Virus record (IMG/VR): IMGVR_UViG_2778261514_000007
Location: 1 to 6,445 of that record
Strand: one strand, 5' to 3'
DNA length: 6,445 nt
Source of the DNA: a virus
Taxonomy: Duplodnaviria; Heunggongvirae; Uroviricota; Caudoviricetes
Shown here piece after piece: positions 1-6,445 of this stretch. The notes below the pieces were generated by a model that had not been told where the DNA came from, did not search any database, and saw only the letters and a list, made by a program, of their open reading frames with translations. Each line of letters begins with the position of its first letter. Within the stretch, counting starts at the first letter, position 1. The translations under genes and the position numbers were made by a program.

Positions 1-64
1 TTTAACGTCCCCAGACCGCTAACGACGCATGTGCCATACGCCGTGTTACAACCAACCTTTCGTT

Positions 65-81
65 AACAACAGTCTGTTGTT
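65..81. promoter_or_regulatory. 17-bp perfect palindrome aacaacag-t-ctgttgtt (8-1-8), just downstream of the putative leftward promoter; candidate operator or 5' RNA hairpin
   Basis: Seen directly: positions 65-72 are the exact reverse complement of 74-81. Function is inferred from position only. Confidence 0.3.
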
Positions 82-91
82 TGTTCAGATA

Positions 92-120
92 ATGATGCTA
101 CTAAAAGTAGCAAAAATCAA
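92..120 (-). promoter_or_regulatory. PL/OL-like leftward promoter-operator module
   Basis: Minus-strand reading ttgatttttgctacttttagtagcatcat matches the module upstream of the cro-like gene (2485-2513, ttgcaatttgctattttaagtagcatcat) at 24 of 29 positions. It contains a -35-like TTGATT, a 17-nt spacer holding the dyad ctact-ttt-agtag (plus strand 98-110), and a weak -10-like CATCAT. An extra aagtag half-site lies at 128-133. Confidence 0.45.
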
Positions 121-350
121 CAACAAAAAGTAGAAGTGTGTATTTAATTTTTAGTTTTCTATATAACGTTATGAATTAAAAGGTTTTTCACAGATGGGGG
201 GATGTGGTGTAGTTACGTATAGAAAATATCGAGTGTCTTTTGTTTTGGTTTAATTATTAGGTTAATTAGATAGTAATAATTTTGGGGAAAATAGTGGGAA
301 CTATGGATACAACGGGTCAGGAACAGTGTTATTAAGCAGGCTACGAGTAT

Positions 351-372
351 AAAACCCGACCTGTTGGTCGGG
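351..372 (-). terminator. Rho-independent terminator downstream of the ParA-like gene
   Basis: 7-bp GC-rich stem cccgacc (355-361) / ggtcggg (366-372) with a 4-nt loop. On the minus strand the stem is followed by TTTT (complement of aaaa 351-354) then ATACT. It lies 37 nt past the minus-strand stop at 409-411. On the plus strand it is not followed by a T-tract, so it is unidirectional. Confidence 0.55.
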
Positions 373-408
373 CGAGAATTATGTTCGTTCTAAATCATGG
401 TTATTGTA

Positions 409-1494
409 TTACAGACACTTGACTACTGTTGAAACATCAGATTCTAGTGCTTCAATTTGTGCTCTATTAGCTTGGGTCGCCATACCATAGATAGTGTAAC
501 TCTTATGCTGCAGCCTACTTAAAGGGCATCCCTCATGGTTTATTATTGCTGCAAGAGTATTACCATCTTTGACATTTTGAACTCTCTCGAAAGTAGCCAC
601 ATTTGTGAACAGATGAGGATGTGTATTTAACAGGTCATCCGTGATTCTTTTGATCTCTTCTGCATGTGATTTGAATGCTTTTGCTGCATCACTTTCATTA
701 GTTCTTGAGCGGTTTTGTACGAAAAGGTGTAGTTCAGGTAGTTCGATAAGGTTTTGCTTTGCTTCTTTGTTGAAATCTAAGAACATTTCATCTTGTTCTG
801 ACTTGTCAATAGACACTCCATAAATAAGTTTAACAAGGTTTTTTATTCCGCGAATTGATGCAGCATCGGCAGTGCAAGGGATAATTATTCTATTTGCCGC
901 GACTACTCCCAATTCTGTGTAGCTGGCAAAACTTGGATTACAATCAATAAAAAATGTTTTTGCTCTGTCAGAAATGTTTTTATCGGCTTCAAAAGATGCT
1001 ATTAGATCTACCAGCAAAGATCGGCTTTTCTTCCATGCTTCTTTTACTGGGGATGAGCCAATGTGAGATATTAAGCGTGAACAGATATCAAGATCGACAT
1101 CACCAGGAAGAATATATAAGTTCTCTGGCATTTTTGCATTAACATCATGGGCTCGTACAAAGTAAGAAGATTCATTTCCTAAACGAGACAAAGGAGATTT
1201 GCTAAAACGCTCCTTGATATAACCTGCGATTGTAACATTTCTGTCTCGCAATTTATTTAGATTTTCTTCCCCGGTACCATTGCCACCAAGAATAATTTCT
1301 GAAACGTTTGATTGAGGGCATGAGTCAATAACCACAACATCTTGATCCGGATGAGATATAGCAAACTCAACGGCAAGATTATATGTAAGAAAAGTTTTTC
1401 CTACACCACCTTTGTTGTTCCATACTAAATATTTTGTATTGGTGGAAATCATATCTGCTACCCCATCTGTCGCTTCAGTACGTTCATTAATCAT
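409..1494 (-). CDS. ParA/MinD/Soj-family (deviant Walker A) ATPase, 361 aa, with a ~110-aa C-terminal extension of unknown function; no ParB partner
   Basis: ORF-track protein has NKGGVGKT at residues 27-34 (deviant Walker A with the signature lysine) and a ParA-like Walker B region FFIDCNPSFASYTELGVVAANRIIIPCTADAASIRG. ATG at 1494-1492 is preceded by AGGA with a 7-nt spacer on the minus strand. The gene is visibly AT-rich relative to the right half of the window (not computed). Confidence 0.85.
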   Translation of the reverse strand: MINERTEATDGVADMISTNTKYLVWNNKGGVGKTFLTYNLAVEFAISHPDQDVVVIDSCPQSNVSEIILGGNGTGEENLNKLRDRNVTIAGYIKERFSKSPLSRLGNESSYFVRAHDVNAKMPENLYILPGDVDLDICSRLISHIGSSPVKEAWKKSRSLLVDLIASFEADKNISDRAKTFFIDCNPSFASYTELGVVAANRIIIPCTADAASIRGIKNLVKLIYGVSIDKSEQDEMFLDFNKEAKQNLIELPELHLFVQNRSRTNESDAAKAFKSHAEEIKRITDDLLNTHPHLFTNVATFERVQNVKDGNTLAAIINHEGCPLSRLQHKSYTIYGMATQANRAQIEALESDVSTVVKCL

Positions 1495-1728
1495 TATCGT
1501 ATCCTGTTGTATAGAATTGTCTATTATTTATGTTTTATTTTGGTTTTTTTTGTGTTAGTAACGCACCCAAAGATAACATATGGTCTTTATCTTTTCTTAC
1601 TTAGGGTAACAGCTCAGTGTTAATCCATTTTTATGGACCAATGTGCCAAATAAAATTTGTATAAAGATTTTCTATCCTTATCTTTTATCATCTGTGCTCG
1701 TTTGCTTTAACGATTGCTAGATGCCTAA

Positions 1729-2469
1729 TTAAAGTCGATTATATTTAATCGACTCATGAATCAGTGCCTTACCCATAACATAAAGCTGATCTTGCGACTT
1801 CTCATCAATGTACCATTTCTCATAGGCGGGGTTATCCGAAAGAACAGCTAGTTTGTTGCCTTGCATTTGTAGACGTTTAACATGGAAAGTCTTACCGTAA
1901 ACGAAAGAGTAAACTCCATCAGTCTGGAAGTGGCGAACGGAAATGTCGACAAACAATCGATCCCCGGAAACAAGAGTTGGGGACATACTATCTCCATTTA
2001 CCGTCATAACTTTTATATCATTCTGAGAACGGTTTCCGAAAAGAGAACGGGCATGTTCAGTTGTGAACTCAATGGCGTAGAGCACATCAACATAGTCTGA
2101 AAGCATATAGGTCCCAGGTCCTGCGCTAACGCTAAGATCCAAAACTTCTATCCTGTATACATCGGGCTTTGTTGGATTGGGGATGCTTGCCATTTCCTTA
2201 CATTCCTCTCTATCTCCAACACCATATTCTAGATATGAAGCTGATACTCCAAGAGCCAACGCAAGTTTACTCATGACAGAGACACGTGGCTTCGCTGCGC
2301 CGATTGTGTATCGACGAGCCATTTCATATGTAACGCCCACAAGACTTTTGAGTTGAGTGACAGAGATTCCTTTGATTGTCATCAATTCGTTTAGTCTCTT
2401 GGCGAAATCTGGATACTTCTGTTCTTCTACCATAGGTAGAAGATTACTCACATCGCACGCGCTAGTCAT
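1729..2469 (-). CDS. cI-like prophage repressor: N-terminal HTH (XRE-type) plus C-terminal S24 LexA-like autopeptidase domain
   Basis: N-terminal HTH-like segment FAKRLNELMTIKGISVTQLKSLVGVTYEMARRY. C-terminal S24 hallmarks: Ser in NGDSMSP, Lys in HVKRL, and a possible Ala-Gly cleavage site in VSAGPG. The ORF-track start at 2490 is a TTG; the first ATG is at 2469-2467 with no Shine-Dalgarno, consistent with a leaderless PRM-type transcript as for lambda cI. Start is therefore 2469 or 2490. Confidence 0.85.
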   Translation of the reverse strand: MTSACDVSNLLPMVEEQKYPDFAKRLNELMTIKGISVTQLKSLVGVTYEMARRYTIGAAKPRVSVMSKLALALGVSASYLEYGVGDREECKEMASIPNPTKPDVYRIEVLDLSVSAGPGTYMLSDYVDVLYAIEFTTEHARSLFGNRSQNDIKVMTVNGDSMSPTLVSGDRLFVDISVRHFQTDGVYSFVYGKTFHVKRLQMQGNKLAVLSDNPAYEKWYIDEKSQDQLYVMGKALIHESIKYNRL

Positions 2470-2539
2470 TTCTATTTTAAGTAGTTGCAATTTGCTATTT
2501 TAAGTAGCATCATCCCTCTGAATTTCAGAGGAGAAAGGT
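2470..2539. promoter_or_regulatory. Divergent promoter/operator region (PRM-like leftward, PR-like rightward) between repressor and cro-like gene
   Basis: Exact 13-bp direct repeat ctattttaagtag at 2472-2484 and 2495-2507, each an imperfect dyad (ctaYt-NNN-agtag). -35-like TTGCAA at 2485-2490, 17-nt spacer, -10-like CATCAT at 2508-2513. On the minus strand a TAAAAT hexamer sits 4 nt upstream of the repressor ATG. A 17-bp palindrome (2515-2531) overlaps the cro Shine-Dalgarno. Confidence 0.55.
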
Positions 2540-2779
2540 ATGTCATCTCAAAACTACACAGAGAAAGCAGTAAAGGCTGCGGGAAAATCTTTATCTGAAG
2601 TAGCCCGTCGCTTTGGTTTTAAGTCCACTCAATCCGTCGCCAATTGGGTAATTAACAATCAAGTCCCGTCAGAACGGGTTTTACAACTTTGTGAGTTGGG
2701 AAACTGGTCCGTGACCCCTCATGAACTGCGTCCTGATATTTACCCCAATCCAAATGATGGATTACCTGAGTGCTATTAA
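2540..2779 (+). CDS. Cro-like small HTH regulator (YdaS/Cro family), 79 aa
   Basis: Strong RBS gaggag (2528-2533) 6 nt upstream of ATG 2540. The motif VPSERVLQLCELGNWSVTPHELRPDIY matches my recollection of the YdaS/Cro-family signature (..VP.ERV...E..TG..RHELRPD..). Divergent from the repressor, in the classic cro position. Confidence 0.8.
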   Translation: MSSQNYTEKAVKAAGKSLSEVARRFGFKSTQSVANWVINNQVPSERVLQLCELGNWSVTPHELRPDIYPNPNDGLPECY

Positions 2780-3416
2780 AAAGTTAGCGGTTCAACTGCG
2801 TAAACGTAACCACAGAAACGAGGAATTAACCGTGGGTAAAGAACCTGAATGGAAAGTTGATAAGCAACCAGCATGGCTGGTGGCAGCAATACGAAGAACG
2901 ATTGCTGATTTACCTCATGGCTATGAGGAAGCAGCGGAAATTCTTGGTTTGTATAAATCTGATGATATCACCCCAGCGAAAGATCAATTGCATAACAGAC
3001 TGCGTAGCGGTGGGGATCAAATTTTTCCACTTGAGTGGGCCATGGTTTTACAGGATGCCAGTGGTACCAGGCATGTAACGGATGCGATAGCGCGTCGTAG
3101 TAATGGGGTGTTTGTGCCGCTGGTGGACATTGATGACATTGACAATGGTGACATTAATCAGCGGCTGATGGAGTCAATAGAATGGATTGGCAAGCATTCC
3201 CAGTACTTACGCAAGGCAACTGCTGATGGAGTTATTGACCAGGCTGAGCGTGAGCAAATCGAAGAGAACAGCTACCAAGTAATGGCGAAGTGGCAGGAGC
3301 ATTTAACACTGTTATTTCGTGTTTTTTGTGCGCCGGAAAAGAGTAACGCCCGCGAGTGTGCAGCTCCGGGCGTCGTGGCGTCGATTGCTTCTGGTTGTGG
3401 AGAAACTAACGCATGA
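2754..3416 (+). CDS. CII-like / YdaT-family lysis-lysogeny regulator (family assignment tentative)
   Basis: Open frame 2721-3416, immediately after cro as in Rac-type immunity regions; family assigned by position and general resemblance only. Start is ambiguous: ATG 2721 (ORF track), ATG-ATG 2754/2757 (both overlap the cro 3' end, no clear SD), or GTG 2832, which has a good SD (gagga, 7-nt spacer). The stop TGA 3414-3416 overlaps the next ATG (ATGA). Confidence 0.6.
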   Translation: MMDYLSAIKKLAVQLRKRNHRNEELTVGKEPEWKVDKQPAWLVAAIRRTIADLPHGYEEAAEILGLYKSDDITPAKDQLHNRLRSGGDQIFPLEWAMVLQDASGTRHVTDAIARRSNGVFVPLVDIDDIDNGDINQRLMESIEWIGKHSQYLRKATADGVIDQAEREQIEENSYQVMAKWQEHLTLLFRVFCAPEKSNARECAAPGVVASIASGCGETNA

Positions 3417-4564
3417 ACAGTTTAACGGCAAATAACCGTTTGTCGCAACAGCTGGTGGTCAGCGTCGCTGAACACCTGTTGTTACGGCATGAATGCAGAT
3501 TACCAAATCACCTGGCTGTAAGTAACCACAGAGAACTTTACCTGACTGTGGGGGGCGAGTTGTGCAGGAACTTAACCGCTGGTTTCGTGACGGAAGAGGG
3601 CTTTATGTCCATGTTATTCGTTGGGAGCCAGAAACACAGCGCGTTATCTATCTTCGCAAAGACTACCCGCATGAGTGCTTTAGTCCTTTGTGGAAATTCA
3701 GGCGTGATTTTGTTGAGTGTGAAGGACCACCAGCATATTGATTCTGCAATTCCGGGACGTTACACTGTTCCGGCACCTTATAAAGCGGGTGCCGGGCGTG
3801 GAAACCCGAAATTCAATATAGAGCACAACCGCGCTCATGCGGTTTTTTCGTGTCATGAGCATCGTTACGCCCAAATTATGGTGGGGCGTGCAGGGCCAAC
3901 TTCGGTTGGGCCGGGTTCTATGTTGACCGGTATTTCCACCCCTGTACGTCTCACCACCTATATGGTCGTGGAAAGCCTTGGTGGTGAGTTCATTGAATTC
4001 AACATAGGGGCTGTCACCATGACTACTCTCCCAACCCAATCTCACCCTGAAATCACGATTATCAATGGTCGCGTTGTCACCACATCTCTTGCAGTAGCTA
4101 ATTACTTTACTAAACGGCATGAGCGGGTTTTAGATAGAATTAGAAACCTCGAATGTTCCGCTGAATTTACTGAACACAATTTTGTGTTAAGTGAATACAC
4201 CGACGCATCAGGCCGCAAACTCCCTTGTTACCAAATCACCCGCGACGGTTTTGCGTTTCTTGCTATGGGTTTCACGGGTAAACGTGCTGCCCGGTTCAAA
4301 GAGGCATACATCAATGCCTTTAACCAGATGGAAAAACTGCTTTCAAAGCCATCCACGCTGAGCGATGCCGCAGATAACGCCAGCGTGCTTTACTCCCACC
4401 TGTCGGTAATCCACAAGGTCTGGCTGCAGCAGCTTTATCCCATGTTGGCAAAAGCCGAATCCCCGCTGGCTGTAAGTCTGTATGACCGCATCAACGACGC
4501 GGCGCTACTGGCCAGTCTCATAAATTTGTCGCTGAACCCTTCAGAGGTAAGGGGGCGCAAATGA
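3413..4564 (+). CDS. Rha-family (pRha domain) phage regulatory protein with an unusual ~200-aa N-terminal region; possibly tandem pRha-like modules
   Basis: Residues ~203-300 (MTTLPTQSHPEITIINGRVVTTSLAVANYFTKRHERVLDRIRNL...ITRDGFAFLAMGF...) match the pRha domain as I recall it. The start at 3413 has an ATGA overlap with the upstream gene and a GGAG 10 nt upstream. The N-terminal part carries a weaker echo of the same motifs (VAEHLLLRHE vs VANYFTKRHE; VTEEGFMSMLFVG vs ITRDGFAFLAMGF). An internal ATG at 4019, preceded by GGGG, could start a canonical ~181-aa Rha. Confidence 0.65.
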   Translation: MNSLTANNRLSQQLVVSVAEHLLLRHECRLPNHLAVSNHRELYLTVGGELCRNLTAGFVTEEGFMSMLFVGSQKHSALSIFAKTTRMSALVLCGNSGVILLSVKDHQHIDSAIPGRYTVPAPYKAGAGRGNPKFNIEHNRAHAVFSCHEHRYAQIMVGRAGPTSVGPGSMLTGISTPVRLTTYMVVESLGGEFIEFNIGAVTMTTLPTQSHPEITIINGRVVTTSLAVANYFTKRHERVLDRIRNLECSAEFTEHNFVLSEYTDASGRKLPCYQITRDGFAFLAMGFTGKRAARFKEAYINAFNQMEKLLSKPSTLSDAADNASVLYSHLSVIHKVWLQQLYPMLAKAESPLAVSLYDRINDAALLASLINLSLNPSEVRGRK

Positions 4565-4785
4565 TCCGGAATATTTTCAAACGGTTTACCAATCAGACTT
4601 TCCGTTGTCCTCGTCCTGGTCAGTGGTACACCACGCCTGCAGGGCATGTTCTACGTGTTAGCCTGGTTGACCGTGAATGTCAGAAGGTGATTTGTGAACC
4701 GCTGGGCCGTAATTACCGCGTCAGTATGCCGCTTATAGCCTTTTGCTCCGGAAAAATGTTTAAGCGTCTGGGAGGTGTGGCGTGA
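4561..4785 (+). CDS. Small hypothetical protein, 74 aa, 4 Cys
   Basis: ATG overlaps the Rha stop (ATGA at 4561-4564); RBS aggtaaggggg upstream; stop overlaps the next gene's GTG. No family recognised. Confidence 0.55.
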   Translation: MIRNIFKRFTNQTFRCPRPGQWYTTPAGHVLRVSLVDRECQKVICEPLGRNYRVSMPLIAFCSGKMFKRLGGVA

Positions 4786-5081
4786 ACTGTTTTCAGTTTG
4801 TGTGCGGATGTGCTTTCGATAACCCGATTCAGCGCCTGATTATGTTGCGTGTTTTGATGTCGGGTTCTTCAGACGGTGAAGGCGAGAGAGTTATTGATCA
4901 TCAGGTGCTTGCTGATTTCTGCTGTTGTTCTAAGCAAGCGATATTCAGGGAAACCCTGGCACTGGAAAGAGCTGGTTATCTTCATATCCGAAAAATTGCA
5001 ACGCTTACTATTGATGCAAAAGCCAGACTACAACCTGCGCGTGGCTACACAATTCTCATGCTGCGGAAGGAGGTTGTATGA
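4782..5081 (+). CDS. Small hypothetical protein, 99 aa, GTG start, 6 Cys, possible HTH
   Basis: GTG at 4782 overlaps the upstream stop (GTGA); RBS gggagg about 8 nt upstream; stop overlaps the next ATG (ATGA at 5078-5081). The segment SKQAIFRETLALERAGYLHIRK is HTH-like. No family recognised. Confidence 0.55.
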   Translation: MNCFQFVCGCAFDNPIQRLIMLRVLMSGSSDGEGERVIDHQVLADFCCCSKQAIFRETLALERAGYLHIRKIATLTIDAKARLQPARGYTILMLRKEVV

Positions 5082-6061
5082 GCCGTTACGCCCCCACACC
5101 GGAAGTTATGGCTATTGGTCAAATTAATATTTCCGGCAATGTTACACCTGCGACCTGGTGGAAATATATTCGACTACCCAGTGGGCGTCCGGATGCGACG
5201 GCTATCGCTCTGCTTTCAGAGATCGTTTACTGGTACCGCCCGACAGAGGTCAGGGATGAGCACACCGGAGCGTTGCTGGGATATCGCAAGCGTTTTCAGG
5301 GCGACAAACTGCAAAGAAGCTACCAGGCGTTTGCTGAGCAGTTTGGTTTCGGGAAAAGGGAAACCGCAGATGCGCTGAAGCGTCTGCGCGATGCAGGGTT
5401 TATTACTCTGGATTTACGCACGGTGGAAATGCTCGATGGGGTGAAATGCAGCAATATTTTGTTTGTCGGGATCAACCCACAGGCAATTGCGGCCATCACC
5501 ACACCTTCTTCTGTTTCGCCAGAAAGTAACAGCAATAATGCAATCAGCGATACAGCTATTACGTTAAAACGGAACACCCCCCGACGTCATAACGGAACAG
5601 GGGATACGCCGAATGTTGATACAAATACAGAGATTACTACAGAGATTACAACGGAGACTAAAAACACTATTGATGCATCCGCTGACGCGTCTGCGCCAGC
5701 GCGTTCTGCCCGACAGGAATATTCACCGGAATTTGAACAGGCCTGGCAGGAATATCCCAAACGTGCTGGTGGCAATTCAAAATCAGCAGCCTTCAAAGCC
5801 TGGAAAGCCCGTTTGAACGAGGGGGTAAACCCCGAAACCATGCTGGAAGGTGTGAAACGCTACGCGGGCTGGGTATCTGCGATGGGCAATAGCGGCACAC
5901 AATTTGTGAAACAGGCTGTCACGTTCTTTGGTCCGGATCGTCATTTCGAAGAATCCTGGGAAGTTCCTGCGGTATCTGCAGCCAGACGCGAGGACCCGTA
6001 CTTCAAAGCCAGTTACGACAACGTGGACTACAGCCAGATCCCGACAGGATTCAGGGGGTGA
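5078..6061 (+). CDS. Phage replication initiation protein (lambda O-like / replisome organiser), 327 aa
   Basis: Strong RBS ggaaggagg (5066-5074). N-terminal HTH-like domain (FGFGKRETADALKRLRDAGFITL), a central low-complexity Thr/Glu/Ile linker, and a C-terminal segment EFEQAWQEYPKRAGG...AAFKAWKARL of the kind seen at the C-terminus of phage replication proteins (recalled pattern). Position after the regulators fits. Confidence 0.7.
   Translation: MSRYAPTPEVMAIGQINISGNVTPATWWKYIRLPSGRPDATAIALLSEIVYWYRPTEVRDEHTGALLGYRKRFQGDKLQRSYQAFAEQFGFGKRETADALKRLRDAGFITLDLRTVEMLDGVKCSNILFVGINPQAIAAITTPSSVSPESNSNNAISDTAITLKRNTPRRHNGTGDTPNVDTNTEITTEITTETKNTIDASADASAPARSARQEYSPEFEQAWQEYPKRAGGNSKSAAFKAWKARLNEGVNPETMLEGVKRYAGWVSAMGNSGTQFVKQAVTFFGPDRHFEESWEVPAVSAARREDPYFKASYDNVDYSQIPTGFRG
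5627..5662. repeat. Short tandem repeat (12-bp unit acagagattacW x2 plus a degenerate third copy) inside the replication gene linker
   Basis: acagagattact (5627-5638) and acagagattaca (5639-5650), followed by acggagactaaa. Encodes TEITTEITTET. Followed by an A/T-rich stretch. Confidence 0.5.
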
Positions 6062-6063
6062 TC

Positions 6064-6445
6064 ATGAGTCTGATGAACGATGTACAGAAATTCATTGAAG
6101 CCCATCCGGGGTGTACTTCAGGTGACATTGCGGATGCTTTTGCTGGTTACTCACGACAGTGCGTTCTGCAGTCAGCAAGCAAGTTACGTCAGAGTGGCCG
6201 TGTGGCTCACTGTTGTGAAGGGAAAACACGCAGACATTTCCCACACCAGGCTGAGATATCGCAGGAGGAGAAACTGCAACCTGTTCTTGAAACCATACCT
6301 GTGCGCAATTTCTATGTCGGCACTAACGATCCCCGGGTGATTTTGTGCCTGACCCGCCAGGCGGAAGAACTGGAGTCCAGGGGCTTATACCGTCGTGCTG
6401 CAACCGTGTGGATGGCGGCATTCCGTGAAAGCCACTCCCAGCCAG
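6064..6445 (+). CDS. Hypothetical protein, 3'-truncated at window edge (at least 127 codons); N-terminal winged-helix-like segment, C-terminal PerC/ANR-like motif (tentative)
   Basis: ATG 6064 lies 2 nt after the replication gene stop, with GGGGG upstream; the frame is open to the end of the window. It is absent from the ORF track only because no stop is reached. The motif LESRGLYRRAATVWM resembles my recollection of PerC-family proteins. Confidence 0.55.
   Translation, partial: MSLMNDVQKFIEAHPGCTSGDIADAFAGYSRQCVLQSASKLRQSGRVAHCCEGKTRRHFPHQAEISQEEKLQPVLETIPVRNFYVGTNDPRVILCLTRQAEELESRGLYRRAATVWMAAFRESHSQP

Follow-up and report, generated by a model that had tools for sequence, protein, structure and literature searches.

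A long reading frame spanning IsrK- and C4-type RNA genes and a nested Rha-family gene

The long frame and the elements inside it

The stretch of viral DNA analysed here (the window: 6,445 nucleotides, positions 1 to 6,445 of the Caudoviricetes record IMGVR_UViG_2778261514_000007 in IMG/VR) carries on its plus strand an ATG-initiated, Eta-like open reading frame (ORF) of 383 codons plus a stop (3413..4564), called f0 below, which reads through a series of embedded elements into a Rha-family gene. These elements are a YmfM-like leader, a nested DUF4222 gene in another frame, a promoter-like site, genes for two small RNAs (sRNAs) of the IsrK and C4 types, the C4 target sites and the nested Rha ORF. 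This anatomy is next to certain. The locus is best understood as a lambdoid-prophage version of the eta/kil arrangement of P4, with a pRha cargo and an extra nested gene, a reading to which we assign a probability of roughly 0.75. As the initial annotation stated, the ATG at 3413 overlaps the TGA of the CII-like gene ymfL (ATGA) and follows a Shine-Dalgarno (SD) sequence, GGAG, at 3399-3402. The ATGA start, 149 nt 5' of the DUF4222 gene, is retained in 83 of 89 loci.

Within f0, purifying selection at the protein level is confined to the region that begins at the internal ATG at 4019. This ATG, residue 203 of f0, is preceded by GGGG (4007-4010), again as first annotated, and opens a nested ORF (4019..4564, plus strand) for a 181-aa Rha-family protein composed of a pRha domain (~4079-4336) and a C-terminal helical region. 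The pRha domain corresponds to residues 223-308 of f0 (Pfam PF09669, 107.4 bits against a cut-off of 29.9, E 2.7e-31 to 5.7e-31), and TIGR02681 also matches (100.6 bits against 45.95, E 1.5e-29). The profiles phrog_518, phrog_2657, phrog_18886 and TIGR02681 start 7-15 profile positions before residues 213-216, which places canonical Rha N-termini near Met203. A PDB sequence search with the short Rha returned no match.

Immediately upstream, f0 crosses two RNA genes. A promoter-like site (3738..3766, plus strand) consists of a -35 hexamer TTGATT (3738-3743), a 17-nt spacer and a -10 hexamer TACACT (3761-3766), and is placed for a start at ~3773. TTGATT-17-TACACT is nearly invariant in all variants, and TTGNNN and TANANT elements lie at an equal distance 5' of isrK in Gifsy-1 (PisrK), P4 (PLE region), P88, N15, Hafnia phage yong2 and a Shiga toxin (Stx) 2a phage; the promoter call rests on this conservation and on the alignment with Gifsy-1, in which PisrK has been mapped experimentally, and with P4. 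The IsrK / P4 seqA-type sRNA gene occupies 3773..3849 on the plus strand (Rfam RF01394, 61.6 bits, gathering threshold 50, E 9.7e-12) and has an intrinsic terminator formed by a stem at 3827-3844 and a T-run. The C4 / P4 CI-type antisense RNA gene follows at 3874..3961, also on the plus strand (RF01695, 82.4 bits, gathering threshold 45, E 1.2e-15); the covariance-model scan also gave a sub-threshold c4-a1b1 match at 3760-3812. All eight long-form relatives tested have both genes at equivalent positions, and the scan found neither in related loci lacking the stretch that matches the Pfam family Phage_ASH (the Ash stretch). All three C4 helices remain fully (100%) paired across 18 variants, and eight of their pairs have changed on both sides. 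An AUG at the C4 5' end (3878, +106 from 3773) is in frame with Rha and is equivalent to the first AUG of Gifsy-1 orf45.

Judged from the sequence, the architecture is a1b1 - c4 - a2b2, as in P1 immI, or seqA - CI - seqC, as in P4. IsrK contains a1, GTGGAAA (3798-3804), and b1, TCAATATAG (3813-3821); C4 contains the b' loop CTATGTTGA (3918-3926) and a', TTTCCAC (3933-3939); and the downstream target region (3968..4010) contains a2, GTGGAAA (3968-3974), and b2, TCAACATAG (3999-4007), all on the plus strand. As RNA, the C4 hairpin loop CUAUGUUGA (3918-3926) is complementary to UCAAUAUAG of b1 in IsrK and to UCAACAUAG of b2, and UUUCCAC of a' is complementary to GUGGAAA at a1 and a2. The b2 site abuts the GGGG that serves as the SD of ATG 4019, and the pairing can be extended by G-U pairs; in most relatives it reaches into a GGAGG SD, and the end of b2 lies 8-10 nt from the ATG in 11 of 12 a'/b' combinations.

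The loops could be extracted from 45 of 46 sequence variants and define nine b' loops and six variants of the a' region (at least four core a' sequences), each matched by both targets. Contiguous cognate pairing at the b sites spans 9-12 nt in 11 of 12 combinations (7 nt in L047) and 6-8 nt at the a sites. Loops and both sets of targets covary three ways: in alignment A2 (18 sequences), 96.9% of b'-b2 cells are paired, with seven of nine pairs changed on both sides, b1-b' cells are 98.1% paired and a1-a' cells 99.2% paired (six of seven pairs changed), against ~40% in slid controls. The a and b types assort independently: L004 combines the b of the window with another a, and L024 the a of the window with another b, while flanks of differing a/b types are otherwise 98-99% identical. 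This implies recombination inside a module of ~300 nt and the existence of many heteroimmune types. Energies of full-length C4-target duplexes compared with shuffles were uninformative because unfolding of the whole molecules dominates them, and loop-level complementarity and covariation were used instead.

Selection on the frame and its openness

The ratio of nonsynonymous to synonymous substitution (dN/dS, Nei-Gojobori) was computed in f0 between the window and relatives at 81-88% nucleotide identity over the ORF. It is 0.22-0.70 over codons 1-49, 0.85-3.8 over codons 51-109, which overlap the DUF4222 gene, and 0.85-2.5 over codons 111-205, the Ash stretch; it is 0.11-0.23 in the pRha domain and 0.10-0.19 in the C-terminus. 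Similarly, mean pairwise variation at f0 position 3 relative to positions 1+2 is flat upstream of 4019 (0.7-1.07) and reaches 2.4-2.7 from 4019 on. An AlphaFold run on the 383-aa frame (16-sequence alignment, mean pLDDT, the predicted local distance difference test score, 36; to be read for the contrast between regions only) gave a pLDDT of 21-34 for residues 1-235 and of 55-75 only in the pRha domain (residues 236-311), with residues 111-210 at ~21-23 and predicted to be without secondary structure. The predicted contrast agrees, weakly, with the other data.

The Ash match is a translation of the promoter-like site and the RNA genes and not a protein domain. Phage_ASH (PF10554) matches f0 residues 117-213 with 34.5 bits, above its gathering threshold of 26, yet the stretch fails as a domain, having a dN/dS of 0.85-2.5, a flat codon-position profile and no predicted fold. 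The 'conserved peptide' HIDSAIPGRYT coincides in position with the promoter-like site and IMVGRAG... with the 5' stem of C4; the variable parts of the stretch coincide with the covarying antisense loops.

Upstream of the promoter-like site f0 overlaps a 59-aa gene with a GTG start (3562..3741, plus strand, frame +2 relative to f0) and the G-run at 3550-3555 as its SD. The product matches DUF4222 (Pfam PF13973, E 9.4e-14, 51.1 bits against 27; phrog_1343, E 1.9e-36). The initial annotation overlooked this gene together with the promoter-like site and the IsrK and C4 RNA genes, and its remark that stops occur at normal density in the other frames fails for frame +2, which holds an open stretch of 71 codons. 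The Prokaryotic Genome Annotation Pipeline (PGAP) calls the DUF4222 gene in NZ_CP013662, and in some genomes it does so together with a shortened Rha. An own start codon (ATG, GTG or TTG) stands at the same aligned position in 64 sequence variants, usually behind an SD-like GGAGG, GGAAGG or G-run; the diversity comes from a genome scan, a first scan of viral contigs having given near-identical loci only. Within 3562-3741 variation is highest at position 2 of f0 codons, equivalent to position 3 of DUF4222 codons. A programmed -1 frameshift at the G-run (GTG GGG GGC, 3547-3555), joining f0 to the DUF4222 frame, was rejected, since a stop directly follows the run in ST64B and in a C. braakii relative and a start codon of its own, usually behind an SD-like motif, is present in every DUF4222 gene.

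The leader of f0 (codons 1-50, 3413..3561, plus strand) is YmfM-like and shows no f0 codon periodicity. Its first 38 nt (3413-3450) are almost invariant across E. coli, Salmonella and Citrobacter relatives and include a small inverted repeat, AACGG-N7-CCGTT, at 3424-3440; a hypervariable patch of ~30 nt follows, in which a 6-nt indel preserves the frame. The leader motif RHECRLPNHLAVSNH resembles, by eye, FRYERRVSNRWVPCNHS of the YmfM family; phrog_1170 matches residues 47-98 only (E 2.8e-9), and N-terminal similarity to YmfM is weak. In SfII, mEp390, e14 and numerous prophages of Enterobacteriaceae this frame encodes YmfM (108-114 aa): its start lies on the stop of ymfL, and its own stop precedes that of DUF4222 by ~20 nt. 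In such loci the ratio of nonsynonymous to synonymous polymorphism (pN/pS) is 0.29 in the half that precedes DUF4222, a sign of purifying selection, and in the YmfM/DUF4222 overlap it is 0.33 in the DUF4222 frame versus 1.27 in that of f0, so that only the DUF4222 frame is constrained there. By this comparison the frame in the window appears to be a YmfM-type frame that lacks its stop and reads on into the RNA module; with that stop missing, it is a read-on relative rather than a YmfM orthologue.

The ymfM gene of e14 in E. coli K-12 illustrates the relationship. It starts at an ATGA on the ymfL stop, in the same position and frame and with the N-terminus MNSLT..., and its C-terminal half is overprinted on a DUF4222 gene in frame +2. 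By contrast, YmfM stops and a replication gene comes next, whereas the frame in the window continues into the RNA module and Rha; the part before DUF4222 has ~60 codons in e14 versus 50 in the window, and the two are weakly similar. The e14 ymfM gene is annotated as the cell division inhibitor SfiC (bioRxiv 10.1101/2020.11.19.390815). In K-12 MG1655 (NC_000913.3) an unannotated 59-aa DUF4222 ORF with a TTG start and an AAGGAGA SD lies at 1204001-1204180 (L138 2502-2681), in frame +2 within ymfM (1203822-1204160), and the published ymfM clone would contain most of it.

The frame is kept open beyond chance, as had been claimed from the window itself. It is open in all ~90 related loci that have the element, frameshift or insertion sequence (IS) variants excepted. 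Across 46 distinct sequence variants the interval 3730-4018 contains no stop in f0 and 92 and 225 stops in the other two frames, at zero, 15 and 14 distinct stop columns, respectively, although 185 of 303 columns vary (174 of 285 between 3742 and 4018). The absence of stops extends to isrK and the spacer (3773-3877), where f0 also lacks ATG, GTG and TTG, and this part is therefore readable only by ribosomes coming from upstream. The distance from the -10 hexamer to the C4 AUG is either 111 or 108 nt, both frame-preserving, and the indels in the alignment (a -1/-2 pair; +3/-6) keep f0 in frame.

Over the DUF4222 gene, openness as a by-product of composition was considered and rejected: given the DUF4222 protein sequence, the chance of the +1 frame (relative to DUF4222) being open is ~0.045 (synonymous randomisation, exact calculation), and it is open in all 37 distinct DUF4222 proteins (loci L094-L128), a set that ranges from Escherichia to Kosakonia and Phytobacter. 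This openness represents a dual-frame arrangement conserved across many Enterobacteriaceae genera; where a phage lacks the RNA module, 9-10 nt separate the end of the frame from the start of the replication gene. Upstream of 4019, f0 probably matters by being translated and not by its sequence: it is kept open and its amino acids are unconstrained. Since f0 never gains a stop, ribosomes probably read it as an Eta-like bridge on PR-type transcripts from the upstream promoter. A minus-strand ORF at 3698-4120 (140 aa) has no Pfam or PHROG match.

Prophage setting and known relatives

The window covers the immunity and early-right region of a lambdoid prophage (SfV / ST64B / mEp460 type). A minus-strand gene for a ParA-like (ParA/AAA_31-type) ATPase (409-1494) lies beside one for a helix-turn-helix and S24-peptidase repressor (1729-2490). 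On the plus strand the order is a Cro-like gene (2540-2779), whose product, at the Cro position, matches the Pfam family 'YdaS_toxin'; the CII-like ymfL, ending at 3416; f0 (3413-4564); two small ORFs; and a replication gene (5078-6061). Five successive plus-strand ORFs (2721-6061) are joined by 4-nt start/stop overlaps (ATGA at 3413, 4561 and 5078; GTGA at 4782), which suggests that ymfL through the replication gene form one translationally coupled chain.

DNA covering at least 80% of 3300-4700 is present in 462 of 5426 complete E. coli genomes and, at the same coverage, in 23 phage records; among the latter are Stx-converting phages, mEp460, cdtI and Salmonella ST64B. Annotations of the gene in these sequences read 'Rha family regulator' (~383 aa), 'antirepressor' or 'peptidase'. 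In the Stx2a phage Stx2_499 (L010:2078-3387), IS629 sits within the isrK/C4 region and breaks both the regulatory module and the Rha frame. A common 278-aa variant, the 'ash family protein' (L004:1584-2420, in Stx2c phages; proteins P0002-P0045), replaces the pRha cargo after the conserved MTTLPT start with a 77-aa ORF that has no Pfam or NCBIfam match; a C-terminus resembling that of this variant occurs also in Hafnia phage yong2.

The closest parallel is P4. In the summary of P4 immunity in PMC10111431 (after Forti et al., 1999), transcripts from a constitutive promoter within eta soon terminate and are processed to CI, Kil is translated on read-through, and full-length Eta is made only from an upstream promoter, coupled to the preceding gene; translation of Eta prevents termination and is functionally required. 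ORF199 (eta) of P4 spans isrK (seqA) and C4 (CI) with an internal promoter and a target over the ribosome-binding site (RBS) of an in-frame nested ORF, and the long ORF starts 5' of the internal promoter, coupled to the preceding gene, as in the window. The two long frames are homologous: Phage_ASH matches Eta on its RNA-bearing part (E 3.8e-23, 82.4 bits), and the motifs at the nested starts correspond (EAAIMATTLTPSHPE versus GAVTMTTLPTQSHPE; MATTLTPSHPE in Kil versus MTTLPTQSHPE in the window). The loci differ in the nested product, which in P4 is a 65-aa Icd-like Kil (NF033153, E 1.6e-21) and in the window matches pRha only, and in the host, which here is a lambdoid (SfV/ST64B/mEp460-like) early-right operon between the CII-like ymfL and the replication genes. 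Further differences are the YmfM-like leader and the out-of-frame DUF4222 gene that the long frame of the window also contains, and the spacer between isrK and C4, which is ~107 nt in P4 and 24 nt in the window. Long Eta-like frames are also found in P88 and yong2.

Gifsy-1 has the order isrK-orf45(STnc1160)-anrP, with translation of orf45 coupled (ATGA) to that of the antirepressor gene anrP (Hershko-Shalev et al., 2016, PMC4825925). It resembles the window in carrying isrK, which in Gifsy-1 is served by its own promoter and a leaky terminator, followed by a C4-like RNA, and in an upstream ORF that begins at an AUG at the C4 5' end (+107 in Gifsy-1, +106 in the window); in Gifsy-1, translation of that ORF leads to translation of a Bro-network antirepressor. 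Unlike the window, orf45 is a separate ORF of 45 codons whose ATGA overlap with anrP puts the latter in another frame; a different frame runs across isrK, so that a long ORF of the Eta kind is absent; AnrP carries an ORF6N domain; and the locus lies beside the Q antiterminator gene rather than in the early-right operon.

The immI locus of P1 and P7 has the order a1b1 - c4 - a2b2 - icd - ant1/ant2 (Citron and Schuster, 1990; Riedel et al., 1993; cited through PMC8201110). The shared traits are a C4 with two loops pairing to duplicated targets upstream and downstream, the downstream one lying at the RBS of whichever gene is regulated first, heteroimmune specificities set by loop and target sequences, and an antirepressor (in the window a probable one) as output. 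In P1, however, icd intervenes between the target and ant, the open frame across c4 ends 44 nt past C4, and the in-frame pair is Ant1/Ant2 rather than the long frame and Rha.

Probable translation of the long frame, alternatives and implications

On the P4-like reading, the bona fide protein of the locus would be the 181-aa Rha-family (Bro-network, antirepressor-like) product of ATG 4019. Analogy with AnrP and P1 Ant makes an antirepressor role of Rha probable, although Rha has no sequence similarity to AnrP, an ORF6N protein. In a lysogen, as P1, P4 and Gifsy-1 suggest, the constitutive-type internal promoter would give IsrK, and read-through of its terminator would give a precursor from which C4 is cut out. 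The a' and b' elements of C4 would pair with a2 and b2 on the SD of ATG 4019 and block Rha translation, and the pairing probably also provokes premature termination; IsrK would act as a decoy, competing for C4 through a1 and b1. On transcripts from the early promoter, ribosomes coupled from ymfL would read f0 through DUF4222, IsrK, its terminator, C4 and the targets, and such translated transcripts would escape both RNA immunity and polarity, carrying expression on into Rha and the replication genes.

A bridging role of this kind would explain why f0 is selected for openness only and not for its amino acid sequence. We consider functional translation of the long frame fairly likely. That f0 is specifically a translational bridge across DUF4222 and the two sRNA genes, making early transcripts immune to the phage's own RNA immunity and polarity, and that the same bridge frame is e14 YmfM, is a more tentative proposal, which we hold at below even odds.

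Several points weigh against these proposals. A consensus promoter scan did not flag the hexamers at 3738-3766 (8 of 12 consensus matches), and the AlphaFold contrast comes from a shallow alignment. Transcript ends, RNA processing, the isoforms made, antirepressor activity and translation of the long frame are things we infer. IsrK of Gifsy-1 is an activator that works by structural remodelling, and the regulatory sign and details may therefore differ. No continuous frame leads into the regulated gene in P1, N15 or Gifsy-1. Two close relatives among IMG/VR contigs, L014 and L021, are frameshifted just upstream of DUF4222 (equivalent to 3547-3561 of the window): the G-run of L014 (~150-185) has seven G's instead of six, and L021 has a 1-nt deletion. 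Slippage or errors of sequencing could underlie both. In one Stx2a phage the corresponding frame is not open until 21 nt 5' of isrK and has no upstream start. Together, these three exceptions indicate that full-length upstream translation is not indispensable everywhere. The 7-G variant joins the leader in frame to DUF4222 and severs the long frame from its ATGA start.

The alternative that survives best, though it is unlikely, holds that only the short Rha from 4019 is made, the upstream frame being an untranslated leader that stays open by inheritance because the RNA sequences are conserved and that gene callers extend to the first ATG. Such a leader would account for the lack of protein-type selection upstream of 4019, for the frameshifts of L014 and L021 and for the shorter Rha that PGAP calls at times, and it has a precedent in P1 (99 codons) and N15 (74 codons), where an 'Ash' frame is open over a1b1/isrK-C4 and unconnected to the regulated gene. 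It does not account for the stop columns, 15 and 14 in the other frames and none in f0 while 174 of the 285 columns between 3742 and 4018 vary, nor for indels that preserve frame, openness over DUF4222 in 37 of 37 proteins against a chance of ~0.045, or the retention of ATGA coupling to ymfL. The homologous long frame of P4, moreover, needs translation for its function (PMC10111431).

Very improbable is a genuine multidomain protein made of a YmfM-like N-terminus, Ash and pRha, with Ash as a folded Bro-network domain. Phage_ASH does score above gathering (34.5 against 26 bits), phrog_821 covers residues 61-383, many databases carry the label 'ash family protein' and the frame is always open; yet dN/dS is ~1 and codon periodicity is absent in the Ash stretch, the conserved peptides fall on the promoter-like site and RNA stems and the variable parts on the antisense loops, and residues 111-210 are predicted at pLDDT ~21-23 with no secondary structure.

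A tandem, diverged pRha module or a His/Cys-rich metal-binding sensor domain, for which the composition of residues 1-202 (2 Asp, 0 Trp, 11 His, 4 Cys and 12 Arg, as odd as first reported) and short look-alike peptides were the only arguments, has practically no chance: the supposed pRha echoes find no match between residues 1-202 and 203-383 in BLASTP (best E 10, none below) and no pRha hidden Markov model (HMM) match in residues 1-202 when the halves are scanned separately, no protein-level selection is seen from codon 51, predicted pLDDT is 21-34 with almost no secondary structure over residues 111-210, and the His and Cys positions vary between relatives. The odd composition is what results from translating G+C-rich RNA stems and an out-of-frame gene. 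Two of the three initial readings fail in this way, and the third, a long and a short product with an internal start at 4019, comes near the best explanation, to which are now added the C4 target on the SD of 4019, the Rha profiles that start near Met203 and the maintenance of f0 in the manner of P4 eta/kil; the initial observation and its interpretation thus stand in part.

Seen as a P4-like module, the locus belongs to a type that is already understood (P4 eta/kil with C4/CI and IsrK/seqA) and is ordinary but intricate. If the bridge proposal is true, Pfam Phage_ASH describes translated RNA genes rather than a protein domain, and the bridge frame of e14 carries the SfiC YmfM label while the better-conserved nested DUF4222 gene is unannotated in K-12; whether SfiC filamentation then stems from the N-terminal 55 aa of YmfM, its overprinted tail or DUF4222 would be an open question. 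An open frame with a Pfam match may still be a translated RNA locus, a distinction resolved here by frame-specific substitution patterns and a covariance-model scan. Names such as 'Rha family regulator (383 aa)', 'ash family protein' and even 'peptidase' are attached to hundreds of prophage genes in E. coli, Shigella and Salmonella, for which a better label would be an RNA-immunity module (IsrK and C4) gating a 181-aa Rha-type antirepressor-like protein. With at least nine b and four a specificities assorting independently, these loci offer a natural set for the study of heteroimmunity and prophage cross-talk, and, since several such prophages are Stx-converting, the switch bears on the induction of toxin phages.

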